This document shows positions 7,857 to 34,626 of a DNA stretch of 64,000 nucleotides, one piece after another. The first letter of the stretch is position 1, and each line of letters begins with the position of its first letter. The DNA comes from an uncultured Actinomycetota bacterium. GTDB lineage: Bacteria; Actinomycetota; Actinomycetes; JACCUZ01. The notes beneath the pieces are model-generated. The model was not told the DNA's origin. It was given only the letters and a program-made list of their open reading frames with translations, and did no database searches. The position numbers and the translations under genes are program-made. The stretch spans positions 76,495-140,494 of the forward strand of contig CAVXNC010000024.1 in the NCBI GenBank assembly GCA_963762865.1, given 5' to 3'.

Positions 7857-8111
7857 GGTGTCTCCTCCGACGGCCACTACCTCGGCCCGATCGCTCCACA
7901 CACCCTGAACTCGTTCAAGCTGCCCACCACGATGACAGCCGGGAGCAGAAATTCGGAGGAGAACCTCAGATACTCGAGCAGCGCGATGTGCGAGGCGAGC
8001 ACGGACTGGGGATGGGTCCGAGCACCCGCCACATAATGCCGGTTATGGCGCCTACCCGACGATTGCGCGGTCGGCCGACAGACTAGCGTTGGCGAGTCCG
8101 GAGGTCAGTGG

Positions 8112-9203
8112 ATGGGCGATCACACTCGGGTGAACGCGGCTGGCTACCTGAGCCGCAGGCGGTTTATCGGGCGGTGCGCGAGCGCAGCCGCAGGTTTGGC
8201 TGTGGCCGGCTGCCTAGCGGGCCGGGAGCCCCTTGGCAATCCAGGGCCGCGACTCGTTACCACCCTCGGCGACCTGGCACTACCAGACACGGGTGTCATC
8301 CTGCCTCACGAACACATTTTCTTGGCTGGTCCGAAGCAGGAACGGGTGCAGGTCGAGGACGTAGTCGAGGTGATGCAACCCGAGCTGAAGAATGCGCGCG
8401 CAGCCGGAGTTGCCGTGCTGGTCGACGCAGGTTCGCCGAGTCTCGGTCGCCGGGCCGACATCATCGTGGCGGTGTCACGGGCCGCGCGGCTGCCCGTGGT
8501 CGTGCCGACCGGCTTCTATCTCGACCCGTCGATACCTGAATGGGCGCGGGCCGCGAGCGAGGAGGAGTTGCGCGACTGGATGATCGGCGAACTGGTCGGT
8601 GGAATGGAAGGGACAGACGTGAAGGCGGGCTGGATCAAACTGGCGGCAAGCGACGGCGGACTCACTGAACAAGAGCGCAAGTGCCTGCGTGCCGCTGCCC
8701 GCGCGGGCGCAGCGACCGACTCAACCATCGGCTGCCACATCGAGAGCGGCATCGTGGCCCGCGACGCGCTGGATACCGTGGAAAGGTTGGGCTACCGACC
8801 CGAGCGCTTCGTCTGGATACACGCCGACCATGAACTCTTGTTCCACGCCGACCGTGAACGCGACTGGGGGTTGCGCGAGGAACTGGCACGCCGAGGGGCA
8901 TGGGTGGAGTTCGATAAGATCGGGTTCACTAAGCATGGGGGTGACGCGGCGTCTATCGACATGATGCACATCGACATGATTCAGCACATGCTCGACGCGG
9001 ATCTCGGTGACCGCCTCCTGCTCAGCATGGACAGCGGCTGGTACGACCCCGGCCGGCCCGACTGCCGGGCGGGTTGTATCGAGGGGTACACGTACCTCTC
9101 GAAGACTTTCCTGCCGAGGCTTAGTAAGACTGGGGTAGACGAGGCGACGATTGACAAGCTGACGCGGGAGAATCCGTTTCACGCATTCGCGCGACCCAGC
9201 TAG
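8112..9203 (+). CDS. phosphotriesterase-family (PTE/Php amidohydrolase) protein with a Tat signal peptide
   Basis: The N-terminus SRRRFIGRCASAAAGLAVAGCLA is a twin-arginine signal with a lipobox-like Cys. The LPHEHIF metal-binding motif and an amidohydrolase TIM barrel are present. Confidence 0.8.
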   Translation: MGDHTRVNAAGYLSRRRFIGRCASAAAGLAVAGCLAGREPLGNPGPRLVTTLGDLALPDTGVILPHEHIFLAGPKQERVQVEDVVEVMQPELKNARAAGVAVLVDAGSPSLGRRADIIVAVSRAARLPVVVPTGFYLDPSIPEWARAASEEELRDWMIGELVGGMEGTDVKAGWIKLAASDGGLTEQERKCLRAAARAGAATDSTIGCHIESGIVARDALDTVERLGYRPERFVWIHADHELLFHADRERDWGLREELARRGAWVEFDKIGFTKHGGDAASIDMMHIDMIQHMLDADLGDRLLLSMDSGWYDPGRPDCRAGCIEGYTYLSKTFLPRLSKTGVDEATIDKLTRENPFHAFARPS

Positions 9204-9420
9204 CGCCGACTGCCCGATCTGGGCGGTCGAACGGGTCGCCGAGTTTCGGGCGCGAGTCCCACAACCGGGGACACATCCCGATCTGCCGCTGACCGGATCG
9301 TGTCGGATCATGGCTCCGGCGACTTCGGGCCTCATGCCCAGCGTCGAGTAGTGCCGGTTCCGTGCGGTCGTGTCGGCCAACGAGCGGGTGCGCGGGAACG
9401 GCACACACCGGGCGGCGACC

Positions 9421-9564
9421 TCAGTGGTCGCCAGGGATGTTGCGGTTCGCCCGTGCATCACGGGGAGCCTCGTCGAGCCTGTAGGTCTCTCCCCGTCGCC
9501 GCAACACCAACCAGGCTCCGATCAAGAGCAGAGCGATGACCACAAGAATGACCACGACGCCCAT
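9421..9564 (-). CDS. putative small membrane protein (47 aa)
   Basis: MGVVVILVVIALLLIGAWLVLRRRGETYRL... is a TM helix followed by a charged tail. A GGAGGA Shine-Dalgarno sits 5 nt upstream of the ATG. The gene lies in a lower-GC intergenic stretch. No homology support. Confidence 0.3.
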   Translation of the reverse strand: MGVVVILVVIALLLIGAWLVLRRRGETYRLDEAPRDARANRNIPGDH

Positions 9565-9874
9565 CTCGTCCTCCGTCCGCTGCCAAGCACGCTGCAAGTC
9601 CAGTAGGCCTGGGCTCGTTGCTGGGAGGCAACCCTCAGCCCCTAGAAGTTGCGCACGGTTCCCGATAATGACGAACAATCGCCGGATATCGATCGCCGTG
9701 CCGCCTCGCTTTGTGTGACGTCGCGGAGCACATAGTGCAGGCTATGTTCGGCCGACCCAGCATCTGCGCCTGGGCCTTGATTCGACCCCCGGTCGGGCAT
9801 GGATCCGACCCAGCCGACAGGGTCGATGCAGGCGTCGCAAGGAAGCGGTCGCTCCCGTAGCAAATCGACCGGGG

Positions 9875-10312
9875 TCAGGTCTTGTTCAGCTCCTCGGCGA
9901 ACATCACGAGGATGCCGCTGGGGCCGCGGACGTAGGTGAGCTTGTAGACGTCTTGGTAGGTCGCGACGCCGCGCAGCGGGTGACAGCCGTGCCGCTCGGC
10001 GATCTCGAGGGCCTCGTCGATGTCGTCGACCGAGAAGGCGACGCGGTGCATGCCGATCTCGTTGGGTCGGGTGGGCTCGGTCTCGATCGCGTCAGGGTGG
10101 ATGTACTCGAAGAGCTCGAGGCGACCGTTGCCGTCCGGCGTCTGGAGCATGGCGATGTTGGCGTGGTTGCCGTCGAGCCCGACGGCGGTATCGGTCCACT
10201 CGCCGCTGACCGTGTCACGGCCGAGGACGGTCAGGCCGAGGTCGGTGAAGAAGGCGATCGTCGCTTCGAGGTCGCGCACGGCGATGCCGACGTTCTCCAG
10301 CTTGATGGGCAT
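9875..10312 (-). CDS. VOC (glyoxalase/bleomycin resistance/dioxygenase) family protein
   Basis: 145 aa reading MPIKLENVGIAVRDLEATIAFFTDLGL... The ORF-track start at 10660 is an over-extension. Confidence 0.75.
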   Translation of the reverse strand: MPIKLENVGIAVRDLEATIAFFTDLGLTVLGRDTVSGEWTDTAVGLDGNHANIAMLQTPDGNGRLELFEYIHPDAIETEPTRPNEIGMHRVAFSVDDIDEALEIAERHGCHPLRGVATYQDVYKLTYVRGPSGILVMFAEELNKT

Positions 10313-10498
10313 GCGTGCCACCGTACCGAGGCAAGGCACTTCGTCATGTTCCGTGGGTGACAGCTGCCACGACGCGACCAGGACGTCGGCGGCGACGGCG
10401 CCGACACGCGTCGATGGGCTTGCTGCACACCTGTGGATCTGATCTTGTTTGTGACTCCGCCTCAGGCGAGCCGCCGAGACCGTGACGGTCTCGATGGA

Positions 10499-11614
10499 AT
10501 GCCCAGACACGATCGGTACGGACCCGGGTTGAAGGCCATCCTGCTGAGCGGCACGTGCGCGCTCATGGTGTCGTTGTTCCTTACTCGCTGGGCGATCGCG
10601 CAGTTCGCCACCTGGGGCCTTGGGCAGCTGATCCGCGACGACGGCCCTAGGACCCATCACGTGAAGCGGGGTACCCCGACGATGGGCGGCGCCGCCATCG
10701 TGGTCTCGGTGGTTGTCGGCTATGCGTCCGCCAAGCTGTTGGCCTGGGACCCACCCTCCCGGTCCGCGCTCCTGGTGCTCTTTCTCCTGGTGGGCATGGC
10801 CGGGGTGGGATTCCTCGACGACTTCATCAAGGTCAGGAGGCAGCGCAGCCTCGGTCTCCGGAGCAAGGCGAAGGTGTTAGGACAGACCGTTGTCAGCCTC
10901 ACGTTCGGATTCCTAGCGCTCCACCCGCTGGGCGACGGGGCGGCAGCCGTTGTTTCGCACAGGCTTTCCCTCGGGCATGACTTCGGCCCGGCGTTGCCTT
11001 GGGTGATCGTCATGGCGCTCATCTGGGTCATGGTGAGCGGGACCAGCAACGCGACGAACCTCATCGACGGACTCGACGGGCTGCTCACAGGCAGTGCCAC
11101 GATGGTCTTCGGCGCGTACACCATCATCGGCATCTGGCAGAACAACCACTCGTGCGGATCCGTCGGCACGACCAACGGCTTGTGCTACCCAGTGGCTTCC
11201 CCGCTGGACCTGGCTACCGTCGCAGCCGCCCTGGCCGGCGCCTGCTTCGGGTTCCTGTGGTGGAACGCATCCCCGGCCAAGATCATCTTGGGGGACACCG
11301 GCTCCCTCGCCCTGGGGGCAGCCATGGCGGGGCTCGCACTGATGACCCGGACCGAGCTGCTCCTGATCGTCCTCGGCGGCTTGTACGTCGCCGTCACCGG
11401 GTCGGTGATGCTCCAGGTGTCCTGGTTCAAGCTGACCAGGCGCACCACCGGGGTGGGCAGGAGGATCTTCCGCATGGCGCCGCTCCAGCATCACTTCGAA
11501 CTGCTCGGCTGGGAGCAGGTCACGGTGGTGATCCGCTTCTGGATCATCGCGGGGATGTGCGCCGCGACTGGGCTCGGAATCTTCTACAGCGACTGGCTGG
11601 GAAGCCAGTCATAG
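10499..11614 (+). CDS. mraY: phospho-N-acetylmuramoyl-pentapeptide transferase (actinobacterial MurX/MraY type) located outside the dcw cluster
   Basis: MraY signatures HHVKRGTPTMGG, NATNLIDGLDGL and ILGDTGSLALG are present, plus the actinobacterial Cys-containing loop WQNNHSCGSVGTTNGLCYP. The flanking genes (VOC, SigJ) are not the mur/fts dcw genes that normally surround mraY. Confidence 0.85.
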   Translation: MPRHDRYGPGLKAILLSGTCALMVSLFLTRWAIAQFATWGLGQLIRDDGPRTHHVKRGTPTMGGAAIVVSVVVGYASAKLLAWDPPSRSALLVLFLLVGMAGVGFLDDFIKVRRQRSLGLRSKAKVLGQTVVSLTFGFLALHPLGDGAAAVVSHRLSLGHDFGPALPWVIVMALIWVMVSGTSNATNLIDGLDGLLTGSATMVFGAYTIIGIWQNNHSCGSVGTTNGLCYPVASPLDLATVAAALAGACFGFLWWNASPAKIILGDTGSLALGAAMAGLALMTRTELLLIVLGGLYVAVTGSVMLQVSWFKLTRRTTGVGRRIFRMAPLQHHFELLGWEQVTVVIRFWIIAGMCAATGLGIFYSDWLGSQS

Positions 11615-11655: not shown

Positions 11656-12591
11656 TCAGTTCGTCATGTCCCGCCACGGACGGCGGACCTGGTTCGCCTC
11701 GCGGTTGACCGCCCACGCATCCGCGACCGGTCCGACGTGCCCGAGCTTGTCGGGGTTCAGCACCGAGCGGATCGTCTGGATCTGCCCGTCGAGCACGTCG
11801 ATGGCCCAGGTCGTCAGCACCCCGCCGTCGCGGTCGCGGAAGATCGCGCCGGGCTGACCGTTGACCTCGTGCCGCTCGAAGACGACACCGATGCGCTGGA
11901 ACGGGTCGCTCATCGCCGCCAGGACGCGGGCCACGTTGTCCCCGCCGATGATGCCCCTGGCCCACTGCGGTGCCTTGCCGCCGCCGTCGCCGACCATCTG
12001 GGCGTCGGCGGCAAGCAGCTCCCGCAGCCCGTCGACGTCGCCCTCCTTGAAGGCGTCGAAGAACCGCTCGGCGAGCTCGTCCCGTTCTCGCCGGTCTGCC
12101 TCGAAACGCGGCCGACCGTCGTCCATGTGCCGGCGTGCCCGCACGGCGAGCTGACGACAGGCGGCCTCCGACCGGCCCACCGCAGCGGCGACCTCCGGGA
12201 AGCTGAACCCGAACACCTCCCGCAGCACGAAGACCGCCCGCTCGAGCGGGCTGAGCCGCTCGAGCAGCAGCAGGGCGGCCATGGACACCGAGTCGGCCAG
12301 CTCCGCCGAGCGCTCCGGGTCCTCGTAGGGGTCGGTGAGCAGCGGCTCGGGGAACCACTCACCGACGTACGCCTCCCGCCGCACCCTGGCCGAGCGCAGC
12401 ACGTCGATCGAGATCCGGGTCACCACGGCCGAGAGGAAGGCCTTGGTCGACGTGGGTGTCGTCCCGGAGGCTTCGTAGCGGAGCCAGGTCTCCTGGACCG
12501 CGTCCTCCGCCTCGGTCACGCTGCCCATCAGTCGATAGGCGATCGAGAACAGCAGCGGACGCAGCTCCTCGAACTGCTCGGCCTTGGTCAC
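11656..12591 (-). CDS. ECF sigma factor, SigJ-like (sigma-70 regions 2 and 4 plus a C-terminal SnoaL-like domain)
   Basis: VTKAEQFEELRPLLFSIAYRLMGSVTEAEDAVQETWLRY resembles mycobacterial SigJ. The GTG at 12591 forms a GTGA overlap with the upstream stop. Confidence 0.8.
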   Translation of the reverse strand: MTKAEQFEELRPLLFSIAYRLMGSVTEAEDAVQETWLRYEASGTTPTSTKAFLSAVVTRISIDVLRSARVRREAYVGEWFPEPLLTDPYEDPERSAELADSVSMAALLLLERLSPLERAVFVLREVFGFSFPEVAAAVGRSEAACRQLAVRARRHMDDGRPRFEADRRERDELAERFFDAFKEGDVDGLRELLAADAQMVGDGGGKAPQWARGIIGGDNVARVLAAMSDPFQRIGVVFERHEVNGQPGAIFRDRDGGVLTTWAIDVLDGQIQTIRSVLNPDKLGHVGPVADAWAVNREANQVRRPWRDMTN

Positions 12592-13514
12592 GCCAGCCCT
12601 TCCCTGAACCCCAGGCGCCACGAGGGGTAGCGCAGCTCCCAGCCGAGCTCCCGCTTGGCCTTGGCGTTGGAGAAGCCGCGTCCCTCGGTCATCATGCCCA
12701 CGGCCACGTCACCGGCGATCAGCCGGGCCAGCCAGGTCGGGACCTTCCTCGGCCGCTTCGCCCCGGTGGCGGACGCGAGGTACGGGAGCCATTCGCTCGC
12801 CGGGGCAGGCTCGTCGTCGACGATGTTGAAGACACCCTTCGCCTGCTGCTCGATCGCGAGCACAGTGGCGCTCGCCGCGTCGTCGACGTGGATCCAGGAG
12901 AAGTACCCGGTGCCGCCGCCCACGAGGGGGAACTGCCGCTTGCGCACGACCTCGAGCTGGTCGTCGCTCGCGCCGGGCCCGTAGAACCCGCCGTACCGCA
13001 GGGCGACGCCACCGGCCTTCACGACCACGTCCTCGACATGGCTGATGGCGGCCATCTGCGGCTCCGCCACAGTCCCCGTCATCGGCTCCAGCCCGTCCTC
13101 CTCGGTCTTCACCCAGCCGCTGGTGCGGATGCCGTTGAAGCTCCCGAAGCTCTGCGCCACGACGTGCGCGACACCGGCTGCCTCGGCCGCGGCGAGGAGG
13201 TGGTCCGTCCCCTCGGTGCGCAGCCGGTTGGTGGTCGCGAACCACCGGTCCATGTGCCGGAAGTCGGGCTTGCCGGCGATCGAGGTCATCTGGTGCACCA
13301 TCGTGTCCGGCTTCGCCGCTGCCACTGCCTCACCGACCGATGCCGCGTCCAGCCCGTCCATCACGACCGCGTCGGCGCCCATCTTCTCCAGCGAGACCAG
13401 CCTGCCGGGCTTGGACGTCGTCGCGGTCACCTGATGGCCGCGCGCCACGAGCTCCGGTACCAGCCGCTGACCGATGACCCCTGTTCCGCCTGCCACGAAA
13501 ACCCGCATTGCCAT
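12588..13514 (-). CDS. NAD(P)-dependent epimerase/dehydratase (NmrA/SDR-like)
   Basis: Rossmann motif MRVFVAGGTGVIGQRLV. This family is a common partner of SigJ. Confidence 0.8.
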   Translation of the reverse strand: MAMRVFVAGGTGVIGQRLVPELVARGHQVTATTSKPGRLVSLEKMGADAVVMDGLDAASVGEAVAAAKPDTMVHQMTSIAGKPDFRHMDRWFATTNRLRTEGTDHLLAAAEAAGVAHVVAQSFGSFNGIRTSGWVKTEEDGLEPMTGTVAEPQMAAISHVEDVVVKAGGVALRYGGFYGPGASDDQLEVVRKRQFPLVGGGTGYFSWIHVDDAASATVLAIEQQAKGVFNIVDDEPAPASEWLPYLASATGAKRPRKVPTWLARLIAGDVAVGMMTEGRGFSNAKAKRELGWELRYPSWRLGFREGLA

Positions 13515-13598
13515 CACCTTCCTGTGTCGGTTGTCTCTCTCGGACTTGAGACGAGACAGCCGCGCGGGCTGTGACATGCACGCGGAGAGTCGCGCGGA

Positions 13599-20818: not shown

Positions 20819-21977
20819 CCTCCCGGGCGCGCCGCGTCCTTCAGTGCCCGCACCAGGTCGTGGATGCTCTCGAAGCTGTCGGCGTTGGCCTGGACCGCGA
20901 CGACGACACCGGTGTCGGGGAAGGCGACCAGCCGCACCACGTGGGACGTCTCCATCCCGCCATGGCCGACCGCACCGGGGGTGTCGTACTCGTCCCAAGG
21001 CGAGAAGTCGAGGGTCCCCAGGCCGTAGGACTCACCCCGGAAGTCGGTCATCTCGCGGAGCGAGGCGTCTGCGACCACGAACCCGCCGTACAGGTCGTAG
21101 CCCCAGCGGGCCAGGGTCGCGGCGTCTGTCTCGATGTTCCAACCGTCGGCAGCCATGGCGTCCTTGACGCGGTACAGGATCCCGCCGAGGCCGGGATGAC
21201 TCAGGACGCCTGCCCGAACCACCTTCGCCAGCGGCCGGCCCGTGACCTGCTCGATGATCTCCCCGAGCAAGAGGTAGTTGATGTTCGCGTACTGAGTGGT
21301 CGACCCCGCCGGGGACGATGGGCGGTGGGATCAGCTCCACCAGATCGGCAGTGGTGTACCCCTGGTCCACGAGCTCGACGTAGCCGTCCGGGTCGACGAG
21401 CCCGCTGCGCATCCCGAGCAGGTCCCGGATGCTGGCACCGTTCGCGTCGAACGACGAGAGCTCGGGCGGAAAGTAGTCGGCCGCCGGGACGTCCAGTGGG
21501 ACGGTCCCATCTTCGACCAGGCTCAGGACCTGGGCCGCCGTCATCGTCTTGCCCACACTGGCCGTGAGGAGCGGGGAGTCGGGCATCAGGGAGCTGCCCT
21601 GCCTGTCTACCCCCGCGGCTCCCGACCAGCTCCCTGAGCCGACGACGATGACCGCAGCGGCGACCCCGCGGAGCGTGCCTTCCGCAACCGCCTCGTCGAG
21701 CAGCTCCTGGAACGAGGCGGCCAACGTGTCCGGAAGGCGGCCACTGCGGGAACTCCGGGAAGTCGCCGAGCTCGGCGGTCCAGGTCCGGGAAGCGGGCCG
21801 AGCCGTCTGCGTGGCCTCGTCGGAGGTCGGCTTGACCGTCGCCTGGTCTGCTCCGACCGAGGAGGTGCAGGCGGCGAGCAACGACAGGGTCACTGTCGCC
21901 ACAAGTGTCCGCAGTGCGGCTGACAGTGTCACGGTCGTCTCCGATCGGCGCGCAACCACGGGCTGGGAGACCGACAA
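20803..21977 (-). pseudogene. secreted class-C beta-lactamase-like serine hydrolase (lipoprotein), split over three frames
   Basis: The lipoprotein signal (LSLLAACTSS) is in one frame, the S-x-x-K active site (TASVGKTM) in a second, and the C-terminal ...NINYLLLGEIIEQVTG... in a third. At least two single-base indels at G/C runs (about 21300 and 21750) cause the splits. Confidence 0.6.
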
Positions 21978-22221
21978 CAGGACGATGCCCGCCGAACAGC
22001 GACTCCTAGGAGTTCAACGCCTCGAGGGTGTGCCGAGGTTCGGTCGTCGCGGCCTTCGGTCGACCGCTGCCGTCGCCATCCCGCCCTGGTCGGCTCACAT
22101 CACCCAGAACGGACGAGGTGCCCTGGTTTGACGGGGCCTAGCGTCCGACGAGCCTGGAGTGCGATCCCGAAGTGACTCGGTCTGCACAGTTCGGGCGTTC
22201 CCTAGGCCCTGGGAGGCACCG

Positions 22222-22770
22222 ATGGCGGCATCCGTGACGGGATCGTCACAGCCTGGCTTGAGTGTCGGTCCGACCAGTGAGTTCAGCTTGTTCTTCCACG
22301 TGAAGCCCGGTCAGGGACCGTCGTTGCGGAGCGCGCTCCTGGCCCTGCAGGACACTCCTGGGTACCGGCCCGGCGACTACGGGATGGCTGTCCAGACCAT
22401 TCACGAGGCGCGCTTCGTCCTCTTCGACGACGACACCCGGCTCGCGTTCATCACCAGCTTCGACGGGCCATGGGACGCCTACATGGAGGACTTCTTCTCC
22501 TCCGGGCCGACTCTCGCGCTCTTTGACGTCATCTTCCGCCACGTGGACGGCTACGACGGGCTGCCGGACCTGGCCGCCCTCAGGGCGTTCATCCTGGATG
22601 CCGAGCAGACGGCAGGTGCGTACGCCCGCAACTATGGCGGCACCGTCAAGGAGATCCGGAAGGCCCAGCGCGTGAACGCGGCCTTCCAGCAGGTTCTCGA
22701 CCATCCGGAAGCGGCCGAGGTCCTCGAGCATCCAGCGATGCAGCCGCTGCTCGACGAGGCCGGCGACTAG
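22222..22770 (+). CDS. hypothetical protein (182 aa)
   Basis: Clean ORF with GGGAGG Shine-Dalgarno 5 nt upstream. No family recognised. Confidence 0.55.
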   Translation: MAASVTGSSQPGLSVGPTSEFSLFFHVKPGQGPSLRSALLALQDTPGYRPGDYGMAVQTIHEARFVLFDDDTRLAFITSFDGPWDAYMEDFFSSGPTLALFDVIFRHVDGYDGLPDLAALRAFILDAEQTAGAYARNYGGTVKEIRKAQRVNAAFQQVLDHPEAAEVLEHPAMQPLLDEAGD

Positions 22771-22800
22771 GACGGGCGGCAGGACCGGGAGCGACGTCCG

Positions 22801-23928
22801 ATGTCGGACCACATCTCTGGGCCGCGCGCCCTTGCCGACCCGATCGCGGACATCACCGACGTGTACGCGTTCCCCAGCCCTGAGGGGGCGGATCGCCTCG
22901 TGCTCGTCGTGAACACGCTTCCGATGGCCAAGCCCTCCGACCTGTTCTCGGGCGGGCTGGTCTACCGATTCAGGCTGCGTCCGCTCACCCGGGCGACGAC
23001 CGACGGTCCCGGGTGGCAGTTCGTCCCCGCCGACGAGGAGCACGTCCTCGACTGCGTGTTCTCCACGCCCGATCCCGCCGCTGACGCGCCTGTCCAGGAA
23101 GGCACCTGCACGTCCCCGACCGGAGAGACGGTGTCGTTCCGCGTGAACGACCCGCAGGGCGGTTCCGGTGCCGGCATCCGCGTATTCGCCGGCACCCGGT
23201 GGGATCCGTTCATCATGGATGCACGTGCCGCCTTGACCACGCTCGCGACACACGAGCTGGCTTTCACCGACCCCGGCTCGATCTTCCTGGACGGCAAGAA
23301 CGTGCTGAGTGTCGTCATCGAGCTGGACACGCGGGGGCTGGGTGGCGGCCTCGTGGGTGTCGTCGCGGAGACGCTGACGCGAGGGAACTTCAACGTTCGG
23401 ATCGAGCGCGTCGGAAGGCCCGAGGTGAAGAACATGATGCTCGCACCGAAGGAGTTCGACCGGGTGAACCGGGACCTGGAGATCCGTGACTTGTACAACA
23501 TGGAGGACGCGTTCCACCCCGGCGGCACCTACGGCGGCGCCTACCGCGCGCGTTTGAACGCCAACCTTGCCTTCTGGGACGGCCTGGACGGGAAGGTGGA
23601 CTGGCCAACGGACGAGGACGGCAACCACCCGTTGACAGACCTGGTCCTAGCCGACTTTCTCGTCGTCGACGTCACGAAGCCCTACCTCGAGCGGGGCTCG
23701 TTCCTCGAGATCGAACTCGCGGCCCGACGCGGTCAGCCGCACCAGACGTGCGGGGGACGGACGTTGAACGACGACGTGATGGACACCATCTTCACCCAGC
23801 TCGTCAACGCCGGACATGGCCCCACCATCCGGGACGGCGTCGACTCCGCCACCCGGCCGGCCAGCGGCACGTTCCCCTACCTGGCGCCGCCTAACCCGCA
23901 CCCGCCCGAGCCGCCGGAGCACCACTAG
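22801..23928 (+). CDS. DUF4331-family protein
   Basis: The N-terminal motif SGPRALADPIADITDVYAFPSPE matches the conserved DUF4331 start (DPxADxTDlYAF). Confidence 0.65.
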   Translation: MSDHISGPRALADPIADITDVYAFPSPEGADRLVLVVNTLPMAKPSDLFSGGLVYRFRLRPLTRATTDGPGWQFVPADEEHVLDCVFSTPDPAADAPVQEGTCTSPTGETVSFRVNDPQGGSGAGIRVFAGTRWDPFIMDARAALTTLATHELAFTDPGSIFLDGKNVLSVVIELDTRGLGGGLVGVVAETLTRGNFNVRIERVGRPEVKNMMLAPKEFDRVNRDLEIRDLYNMEDAFHPGGTYGGAYRARLNANLAFWDGLDGKVDWPTDEDGNHPLTDLVLADFLVVDVTKPYLERGSFLEIELAARRGQPHQTCGGRTLNDDVMDTIFTQLVNAGHGPTIRDGVDSATRPASGTFPYLAPPNPHPPEPPEHH

Positions 23929-32593: not shown

Positions 32594-33291
32594 CAGGCCC
32601 CGGCGACGAACTTCTTGCCGGAGGCGACCGGTGCGGGCAGCAGGTCCCGGGCCGGCTCCTCGTAGGACACCGTCACGAGGTCGTCGCCGACGTACGTGAA
32701 GGAGGTCAGGGACGCCAGCGCGCACTGGCGCTTGCGCGGGTCGTGCCAGAGCCGTCGGCCGGTCGCGAAAGACCGCGCTGTCCAGATCGGCAGCTGGTGG
32801 CTCACGCACAGCGCCTCGTGACCGCGCGCCGCGTCGCGTGCAGTGGCGATCGCGCCCAGCATCCGCTCGGCGATCTGGGTGTAGGGCTCGCCCCACGACG
32901 GCCGCAGCGGGTTGCGCAGGTGCACCCAGTGGACCGGCCGACGCAGCGAGCCGTCGCCGACGCCGAAGGTCTTGCCCTCGAAGACGTTGCCCGCCTCGAT
33001 CAGCCGCGCGTCGGTGTCGACCCCGAGACCGAGCTCGGTAGCGGTCGGTGCCGCCGTCTCCTGTGCGCGCTCCAACGGCGACGAGACGACGTGCGTCACG
33101 TCCGAGCCGGCCAGGTGCTCGGCGATCCGCTCGGCCATCGCGCGGCCGAGGTCGGACAGGTGGAAGCCCGGCAGCCGGCCATAGAGGATGCCGCTCGGGT
33201 TGTGCACCTCGCCGTGGCGCAGCACGTGCACCGTCGTCGTCACCTCGGACGTCGGCTGCGACCCGACGCCGGGCTCGGTCGGTTCGGTCAC
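32593..33291 (-). CDS. histidine phosphatase (phosphoglycerate mutase/SixA-like) family protein
   Basis: RHG catalytic motif (VHVLRHGEV). Confidence 0.8.
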
Positions 33292-34626
33292 GGGGAGTCC
33301 TCCGGTGGGCTGGCCTGAGCCGCGGCGCGGGCTGCGGCCGGCAGGGCATCGACGACCCGCGAGACGGCGTCGTCGTCGTGGGCGGCGGACAGGAACCAGG
33401 ACTCGAAGGCCGACGGCGGCAGGTAGACCCCGGCGTCGAGCATCGAGTGGAAGAAGGCGGCGTAGCGGAAGACGTCCTGCTTGCGCGCGCCCTCGTAGTC
33501 GGTGACCGGCTGCCCGGCCGCCGAGGGATCGCTGAAGAAGATGGAGAACATGCTGCCCGCGTGCTGCAGCCGGTGCGCCACGCCGGCGGCCGACAGCGCC
33601 TCGCTGGTCAGCGCGGCCAGCTCGACGGCGACCTTGTCGACGCGCACGTAGACGCTCTCGTCGGCCGCCCGCAGCGTCGCGAGGCCGGCGGCGGTCGCGA
33701 CCGGGTTCCCCGACAGCGTGCCCGCCTGGTAGACCGGCCCGGCGGGCGCCAGCCGGCCCATCACGTCGGCGCGACCGCCGAAGGCCGCGGCCGGGAAGCC
33801 GCCGCCCATCACCTTGCCGAAGGTCATCAGGTCCGGCCGCACGCCCTCGAGCCCGAACCAGCCGGCGGGCGAGACGCGGAAGCCGGTCATCACCTCGTCG
33901 CTGACGAAGAGCGCGCCGTCGGCCCGGCACAGCTCAGCGAGCCCGGCGTTGAAGCCCGGCTCCGGCGGGACGACACCCATGTTGCCCGCAGCCGCCTCGG
34001 TGATGACCGCGGCGATGTCCCCGTCGTACGTCGCGAAGGCGGCCTCGACGGCGGCCAGGTCGTTGTAGGGCACGACGACGGTGTCCGCGGCCGAGGCACC
34101 CGTCACGCCAGGGGTGTCCGGCAGGCCGAGCGTCGCGACGCCAGACCCGGCCGCGGCGAGCAGCGAGTCGACGTGCCCGTGGTAGCAGCCGGCGAACTTC
34201 ACGATCTTGCTGCGGCCGGTGAAGCCGCGCGCCAGCCGGATCGCCGACATCGTCGCCTCGGTGCCGCTGGACACCAGCCGCACCTGCTCGACCGGCTCGA
34301 CGCGGTGCACGATCTCCTCGGCGAGCTCGACCTCGCCCTGGGTCGGCGTTCCGAACGACGTGCCACGCGCGACCGCGGCCTGCACGGCATCGACGACCGC
34401 CGGGTGCGCGTGCCCGAGCAGCAGTGGTCCCCACGAGCAGACCAGGTCGACGTACTCCCGGCCGTCGGCGTCGACCAGGTACGGGCCGCGGCCGGACGCC
34501 ATGAAGCGCGGGGTGCCGCCGACAGCGCGGAAGGCGCGCACCGGCGAGTTGACCCCGCCGGGTGTCACGGCCAGCGCGCGGGCGAGCAGGGCCTCCGACG
34601 CGGGCGCCGGGCTGCGCGTGCCGGTC
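33288..34626 (-). CDS. hemL: glutamate-1-semialdehyde 2,1-aminomutase
   Basis: PLP-dependent class III aminotransferase with [10 protein letters not shown]...TFGKVMGGG. Confidence 0.9.

Follow-up and report, generated by a model that had tools for sequence, protein, structure and literature searches.

A stand-alone paralog of the phospho-MurNAc-pentapeptide translocase gene mraY, here called mraY2, was found in a 64,000-nucleotide stretch of DNA from an uncultured Actinomycetota bacterium (contig CAVXNC010000024.1, positions 76,495 to 140,494 of the forward strand; this whole stretch is referred to as the window). MraY is an essential, normally single-copy enzyme and an actively pursued drug target, with five classes of natural nucleoside inhibitors. 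From the comparisons below we put a probability of roughly 0.6 on the reading that MraY2 is a functional auxiliary lipid I synthase, a duplicate within Nocardioides of the mraY of the division and cell wall (dcw) cluster, kept by purifying selection. The gene lies as follows:

10529-11614, + strand: mraY2, stand-alone paralog of phospho-MurNAc-pentapeptide translocase; 361 amino acids, TTG start, TAG stop at 11612-11614.

By its sequence, the window gene is a bona fide MraY family member. Its product scored 277.2 bits against TIGR00445, the mraY equivalog profile of NCBIfam (cutoff 192.05 bits; profile positions 1-314 of 321), and 32.9 bits against the WecA profile TIGR02380, for which the cutoff is 326 bits, so that it does not fall in the WecA/TagO family; it was far under the archaeal-MraY cutoff as well. 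Two Pfam domains, Glycos_transf_4 (PF00953) and MraY_sig1 (PF10555), were found over their cutoffs, and a sequence search matched residues 7-350 to MraY chains of the PDB with E = 2e-59. An AlphaFold2 (AF2) model of the protein (predicted local distance difference test, pLDDT, 72; predicted template modelling score, pTM, 0.77) has 11 helices. When this model was submitted to Foldseek, the first 24 PDB matches were all MraY, with template modelling scores of 0.6-0.76, followed by GPT/DPAGT1 at about 0.5 and 14-17% identity. The initial annotation of this DNA had called the gene a genuine translocase I and not WecA, and both the profile scores and the MraY fold, the ten-helix transmembrane architecture of the PNPT superfamily, bear this out.

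The residues expected of a translocase are in place. The MraY motifs HHVKRGTPTMGG, NATNLIDGLDGL and GDTGS, already noticed in the initial annotation, are present in the translation, and the two loop cysteines are invariant across the paralog and dcw copies. The catalytic residues D97, D98, D256, H321 and H322 (window numbering) are also invariant; in Aa numbering the invariant catalytic and pocket residues are D117, D118, D265, K70, T75, N190, D193, G194, D196, N255, Q305, H325 and H326. The first His of the HHH motif (Aa H324-H326) is Gln in the window protein. This Gln was considered as a paralog signature and ruled out, the dcw copies themselves being split 37 Gln to 35 His. An exact-sequence look-up found no identical sequence on record for the window protein.

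The gene had at first been taken to begin at 10499. The start is most likely TTG 10529, rather than ATG 10499 or GTG 10433, because the homologs of the window protein are 361-362 amino acids long with first residues homologous to MKAILLSG, and because the indels upstream of this position are not multiples of three nucleotides in length.

The closest relatives of MraY2 form a lineage of their own. Among the matches listed, the best were Nocardioides proteins with 75-97% identity, from N. mesophilus, N. panacis, N. panaciterrulae, sp. Soil797 and sp. LS1, and 109 of the 120 best 90%-identity clusters had 75% or more identity to the window protein, with which they grouped. Locus figures from the genome and metagenome contig scans, here and below, likewise refer to the matches listed. 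In species-representative genomes the distribution was bimodal: a few loci, 83-87% identical, had no mur/fts neighbours, and many loci, at most 64% identical, lay within ftsI-murE-murF-mraY-murD-ftsW-murG. We inspected nine loci of the window's own clade (clade A), namely the window, L001, L002 (N. mesophilus), L083 (Soil797), L084 (N. panacis), L167 (LS1), L168, L003 and L029, together with two loci of the sister groups, L169 and L085. All 11 were solitary, with no mur/fts neighbour and with flanking genes unrelated between loci. In the window, tblastn with FtsI, MurE, MurF, MurD, FtsW and MurG from a relative gave no match in the 64 kb, in agreement with the initial remark that the gene sits away from any dcw or mur-fts neighbourhood.

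At least 73 dcw loci were recovered (72 from the genome scan, plus L086), every one with a dcw-type mraY, and none of the clade-A genes recovered lay in a dcw context. The two kinds of gene occur together in Nocardioides sp. Soil797, where contig LMSR01000015.1 carries a complete dcw cluster, mraY included (L022), and, about 228 kb away, a solitary paralog (P0080) that is 81% identical to the window protein. The position of the window gene had been ascribed either to a rearranged dcw cluster or to a second, possibly acquired, copy. A second copy is favoured, clade A being a separate and always solitary group of which Soil797 has a member in addition to its dcw gene.

A phylogeny of both copy types, which the initial annotation had proposed as a check, was made by neighbour-joining (115 sequences, 351 columns, 100 bootstrap replicates, with E. 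coli and C. bolteae MraY as the root). Clade A, to which we give the name MraY2, was distinct, with a bootstrap of 100. It was joined at 91 by solitary sister groups, one sister copy coming from Luteipulveratus (Micrococcales), and at 81 by the dcw copy of Nocardioides sp. KR10-350. The whole assemblage is nested inside the Nocardioides dcw copies, and because of this nesting the tree points to mraY2 being an old duplication of dcw mraY inside the Nocardioides lineage, probably with occasional later transfer. The ratio of nonsynonymous to synonymous substitution rates (dN/dS) was 0.18-0.42 in clade A versus 0.13-0.47 among the Nocardioides dcw copies, and thus as low in the paralog as in the dcw genes; mraY2 is under purifying selection, which speaks for a working gene, and looks like a case of long vertical maintenance. 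The tree also contained a second solitary clade (clade B, bootstrap 100), made up of Nocardioides loci and one from Kribbella. Neither in clade A nor in clade B loci were there conserved gene neighbours that might serve as a functional clue.

Clade B loci: L031, L032, L034, L039, L050 (Kribbella sp. CA-294648) and L060; the match spans about 8001-9090 in most of them, and identity to the window protein is 56-61%.

The sister copy from Luteipulveratus mongoliensis (L085, 8001-9089; CP011112) is a solitary mraY beside two ABC-transporter ATPase/permease pairs, and its presence in the Micrococcales suggests inter-order transfer.

Eight residues are fixed in clade A and differ from those of the dcw copies, and a ninth site belongs to the clade-A signature without being fixed. 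In window numbering, with the dcw residue and where available the Aa position in brackets, these are:

L31 (Y), V142 (A), A223 (R) and S224 (D): fixed in clade A.
T176 (V; Aa V189) and L186 (A; Aa A199): fixed in clade A.
I253 (F; Aa F262) and Y286 (F; Aa F295): fixed in clade A.
I/V179 (T; Aa T192): signature site beyond the eight fixed.

In the 116 clade-A members counted, Aa V189 was Thr in 116, T192 was Ile or Val in 114, and A199 was Leu in 116. The uracil-stacking residue F262 was Ile in all 116, versus Phe in 64 and Ile in 6 of 72 dcw copies. These four sites flank or form the uridine pocket. Ten pocket residues were compared according to the roles given in PMC6606608 (K70, T75, N190, D193, G194, L195, D196, N255, F262 and G264); nine are kept in the window protein and F262 is replaced. 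F262, G194, L195, D196 and K70 form the uracil pocket for all five inhibitor classes, and F262 stacks on the uracil of all five (PMC6606608). D193N and F262A are reported to be the mutations that disturb muraymycin D2 binding most (PMC11117252). Clade B shares Ile at F262 and Leu at A199, independently of clade A. The remaining signature sites include two that are extracytoplasmic, where the dcw copies have R223 (100%) and D224 (96%) and the paralog has Ala and Ser, and one in transmembrane helix 9 (TM9), the Phe-to-Tyr substitution at Y286. The change from F262 to Ile is compatible with the essential function, since six housekeeping dcw copies carry it:

dcw mraY copies with a natural Ile at Aa F262: L014, L020, L035, L036, L041 and L051.

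A further property of clade A is a conserved region directly upstream of the gene. About 130 nucleotides 5' of the start are kept in nine clade-A loci from different species and with different upstream genes. At the other end, sequence conservation among the clade-A loci stops exactly at the mraY2 stop codon. A TTG start is found in 8 of the 10 clade-A loci with a called start, these being seven of the eight loci with the core leader and L167. The features of the region are:

10397-10528, + strand: conserved non-coding upstream region of mraY2 (putative promoter, operator or 5' leader), from leader alignments and an nhmmer profile.
10403-10416, + strand: conserved block GACACGCGTCGATG at the 5' edge of the region; near-invariant in 8 of 9 core clade-A leaders.
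10475-10493, no strand: perfect palindrome CGAGACCG-TGA-CGGTCTCG, read from the sequence; 36 nucleotides before the TTG start.
10506-10521, + strand: conserved block GACACGATCGGTACGG just 5' of the TTG; near-invariant in the window, L001, L002, L083, L084, L029, L087 and L088.
mraY2 leader in other loci: L001 9868-10000, L002 9870-10000, L083 9879-10000, L084 9865-10000.
mraY2 leader in other loci, continued: L029 7895-8027, L087 2211-2345, L088 49-182.

The conserved elements within the region are, besides the two blocks listed, GAATGTGGT, GGTTCTGCCC and the palindrome core GACCGTGACGGTC; the block at 10506-10521 is partly retained in L167. An nhmmer profile built from eight leaders matched only 5' of clade-A mraY2 within 1.9 Mb of loci (E from 1e-39 to 3e-8). 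Species differ here by indels of 1, 2 and 5 nucleotides, which argues that the region is non-coding; reading frames are not kept across them, and an N-terminal extension or an upstream open reading frame (ORF) was ruled out on this ground. We read the region as a likely promoter/operator plus 5' untranslated region, with the palindrome as one conserved element within it.

The palindrome had been noticed in the initial annotation. It is indeed present and perfect, but lies two bases from where it was first placed, and it does not directly precede the start. Perfect hairpins with 8-bp arms number 34 in the window, against 26.6 +/- 7.7 in simulated sequence, which is not beyond chance, and since hairpins of this size match chance the palindrome is notable only for its conservation across species. 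Several species have kept the core (10478-10490). It has a single occurrence in the window, and among all loci retrieved the leaders of mraY2 in L001, L002 and L029 were the only other places where it was seen. A role as a regulon motif was ruled out, as outside these leaders it turned up neither in the window nor in the 1.9 Mb of loci. The leader was also searched against Rfam, with nothing better than E = 1.8, and a terminator scan of it gave nothing usable. Motifs of the extracytoplasmic function (ECF) type at -35 and -10 were fitted to the leader by eye, were unconvincing and were dropped. The blocks at 10403-10416 and 10506-10521, about 103 bp apart, look alike by eye (GACACG(CG)TCGATG and GACACGATCGGT).

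Taken as an auxiliary lipid I synthase, MraY2 would move phospho-MurNAc-pentapeptide from UDP-MurNAc-pentapeptide onto polyprenyl phosphate to give lipid I, an activity we infer because the catalytic and substrate-binding residues are fully conserved. Since mraY2 is monocistronic and has a conserved upstream region to itself, about 130 nucleotides long, as well as a conserved, weak TTG start, it would be expressed separately from the dcw operon, probably at a low level or only under certain conditions. The enzyme could then step in as a translocase whenever the dcw copy falls short or is blocked.

Several points weigh against this reading. The auxiliary role was assigned by elimination. The window's own genome very probably has a separate dcw mraY elsewhere, but this is argued from one relative, Soil797, and the dcw mraY genes of N. 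mesophilus, N. panacis and LS1 were not found among the best 120 matches listed. The deeper nodes of the neighbour-joining tree have modest support (81 and 65). A fold of the leader RNA was unsupported, with a minimum free energy z-score of -0.85 and an unfavourable alifold covariation term, in an underpowered comparison of 8 sequences. No sigma-70 consensus promoter was found in a scan of the leader, and no promoter type could be assigned to it.

A second explanation is target-replacement tolerance. MraY2 may be less sensitive than the dcw enzyme to the uridyl-nucleoside antibiotics of competing soil actinomycetes (tunicamycins, muraymycins, caprazamycins, capuramycins and mureidomycins), and might keep lipid I synthesis going in their presence under an inducible leader. 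The clade-specific substitutions do cluster around the uridine pocket and include F262 to Ile, at the residue shared by the uracil pocket of the five inhibitor classes (PMC6606608) whose change to Ala is reported to disturb muraymycin D2 binding (PMC11117252); the independent recurrence of two of them in clade B fits the same idea. However, the presence of Ile at F262 in 6 of 72 housekeeping dcw copies makes it look like ordinary variation, and in none of the 11 loci does the paralog have a biosynthetic cluster, or a gene for efflux or modification, linked to it. Self-resistance to such antibiotics is, as generally understood, a matter of drug modification or export. To our knowledge, no duplicated target is described for self-resistance to the MraY nucleoside antibiotics in those parts of the literature on mraY and self-resistance that were accessible to us. 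We hold this explanation to be possible and tentative, and it may amount to one particular form of the auxiliary role. In its fullest form, MraY2 would be a nucleoside-antibiotic-tolerant spare translocase with a remodelled pocket (F262I, V189T, T192I/V and A199L), switched on through the leader when the dcw enzyme is inhibited, and in that form we consider it doubtful.

It is unlikely that the paralog has taken on a new function, using another donor (a variant UDP-MurNAc-peptide or another UDP-sugar) or another polyprenyl phosphate acceptor in a pathway other than bulk peptidoglycan synthesis. The eight fixed differences from the dcw copies, two of them extracytoplasmic (A223 and S224) and one in TM9 (Y286), would fit such a change, as would expression uncoupled from the dcw operon. 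Against it, the protein is above the MraY equivalog cutoff and far under the WecA and archaeal-MraY cutoffs, its known uridine, Mg2+ and aminoribosyl-adjacent residues are all kept except F262, and no ligase, glycosyltransferase or flippase partner gene is linked to it in any inspected locus.

That mraY2 is a relocated single copy, the sole essential translocase I of an organism whose dcw cluster has lost mraY, we regard as very unlikely. The window contains no dcw genes, and dcw gene content does vary within the group: murE is followed directly by mraY, without murF, at about 6400-8000 in L008, L027 and L086 (Nocardioides sp. KR10-350), and L048 and L049 have murF and no murE. Yet each of the at least 73 dcw loci has kept a dcw-type mraY, no clade-A gene has replaced one among the loci recovered, and Soil797 holds both copies. 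For a sole essential enzyme it would also be odd to keep a start codon as rare as TTG and to be encoded by a solitary gene.

The low GC content of the region had been offered as a hint of acquisition. The low-GC patch itself is real, the 8-12 kb stretch having a GC content of 0.65-0.67 against about 0.72 overall, but it does not serve as a signal of transfer for mraY2. GC content at third codon positions (GC3) is 0.89 in mraY2, compared with 0.85-0.94 in its neighbours, and its total GC of 0.658 is the same as that of the Soil797 dcw mraY (0.658). For these two reasons the low GC of mraY2 can be attributed to the amino acid composition of a membrane protein. Recent foreign acquisition within a low-GC island is therefore highly improbable: the patch, the atypical GC3 of the adjacent phosphotriesterase-family gene (0.76) and the related solitary copies in Luteipulveratus and Kribbella, which indicate transfer in the family over a long time scale, are outweighed by the host-like GC3, by closest relatives that are all Nocardioides among the matches listed, by the nesting of the clade in Nocardioides dcw copies, by dN/dS values of 0.18-0.42, by a syntenic locus in L001, by conservation that stops at the stop codon, by surroundings of core chromosome (men, ccsB/resB and hem genes) and by the lack of flanking repeats, tRNA or mobility genes.

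The genes on either side of mraY2 are those first named for it, as confirmed by Pfam and NCBIfam matches:

9875-10291, - strand: vicinal oxygen chelate (VOC)/glyoxalase-family gene, divergent from mraY2; Pfam Glyoxalase_4 and Glyoxalase.
11656-12621, - strand: SigJ-type ECF-like sigma factor with a SnoaL_2 C-terminal domain, convergent with mraY2; TIGR02957 369 bits, PRK09636 (SigJ) 325 bits.

The VOC gene adjoins mraY2 only in the window and in the near-identical L001, other species having other neighbours, and the same two loci are the only ones in which the SigJ-type gene adjoins it. No repeats, tRNA or mobility genes were found beside mraY2, and no biosynthetic gene cluster in the 64-kb window. 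The wider window consists of core chromosome, with menaquinone (men) genes, resB/ccsB, hemD/cobA, an M36 protease and a GGDEF-EAL protein. L001 (contig_7023 of a metagenome-assembled genome in ENA), a 96% identical relative, has an mraY2 locus syntenic with the window.

Some further observations were made in and around the window. A phosphotriesterase-family gene at 8112-9203 (+ strand) has an N-terminus like a twin-arginine signal and a GC3 of 0.76, versus about 0.9 in its neighbours, and is followed by about 670 bp (9204-9874) with no confident gene. It may be this gene and the interval after it, and not mraY, that are truly atypical within the low-GC patch. An NAD-epimerase ORF at 12588-13577 (- strand) overlaps the SigJ-type ORF (11656-12621, - strand) by 34 bp, and one of the two starts has probably been called wrongly. 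A GC3-based gene caller gave few confident genes, or none, at 21270-23816, where GC is 0.67-0.69, and at 32665-34625. In L001, several genes that are intact in the window were called as short fragments, such as a SigJ homolog of 159 amino acids and a metallophosphoesterase of 94, so that the L001 assembly probably contains frameshift errors.

The searchable literature gave no account of a second lineage of mraY in Nocardioides, of duplicated MraY as a means of resistance or self-resistance, or of a pair of isozymes for the MraY step. What emerges here is a large, conserved second-copy lineage beside the canonical mraY, with a control region of its own and fixed changes next to the uracil pocket. 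In such bacteria the assumptions of single-gene essentiality and of target-based screening may fail. The MraY2 lineage amounts to a natural experiment on which pocket residues can be changed without loss of function, and intrinsic tolerance to uridyl-nucleoside antibiotics in soil has in MraY2 a specific candidate that can be tested. If it does act as a tolerant spare translocase, target-backup resistance independent of biosynthetic gene clusters would be widespread in soil Nocardioides, and would be a guide to the routes by which resistance to MraY drugs can arise. If the copies are merely redundant isozymes, the result is a modest note for annotation and evolution. A demonstration of differential drug sensitivity or of induction by stress would raise its interest.

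Among known systems, MraY2 is nearest to the canonical dcw MraY (MurX in mycobacteria), with which it shares the TIGR00445 match, the catalytic Asp and His residues, the fold, the actinobacterial Cys-containing periplasmic loop and a similar length, and to whose Nocardioides representatives it is 61-65% identical. It differs in its place outside ftsI-murE-murF-mraY-murD-ftsW-murG, in being monocistronic with its own leader of about 130 nucleotides and a TTG start, and in its eight fixed substitutions plus I/V179, which go with a separate clade of bootstrap 100. The typical, though not defining, position of a dcw mraY is between murF and murD; mraY2 does not occupy it, nor do the genes of the 10 other solitary loci. 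Other enzymes of the PNPT superfamily, namely WecA, TagO/TarO and the eukaryotic GPT/DPAGT1, have in common with MraY2 the Glycos_transf_4 domain and a polytopic fold; they are set apart from it by its score far under the WecA cutoff, by the template modelling score of about 0.5 to GPT and by its MraY motifs.

Duplicated-target self-resistance genes, which are used in target-directed genome mining, resemble mraY2 in being a second copy of a drug target with substitutions near the drug site. The presence of the second copy beside the housekeeping one was seen on one contig in Soil797. Unlike such genes, mraY2 was linked to no biosynthetic gene cluster in any of 11 loci, appears to have originated within its lineage rather than as a foreign resistant allele, and shares its key substitution with some housekeeping copies. 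Gram-positive bacteria are well known to have paralogs of essential wall enzymes, for instance the two MurA isozymes MurAA and MurAB. Pairs of this type are like dcw mraY and mraY2 in that a second, conserved copy for an essential step of peptidoglycan synthesis lies off the main cluster and is separately regulated.

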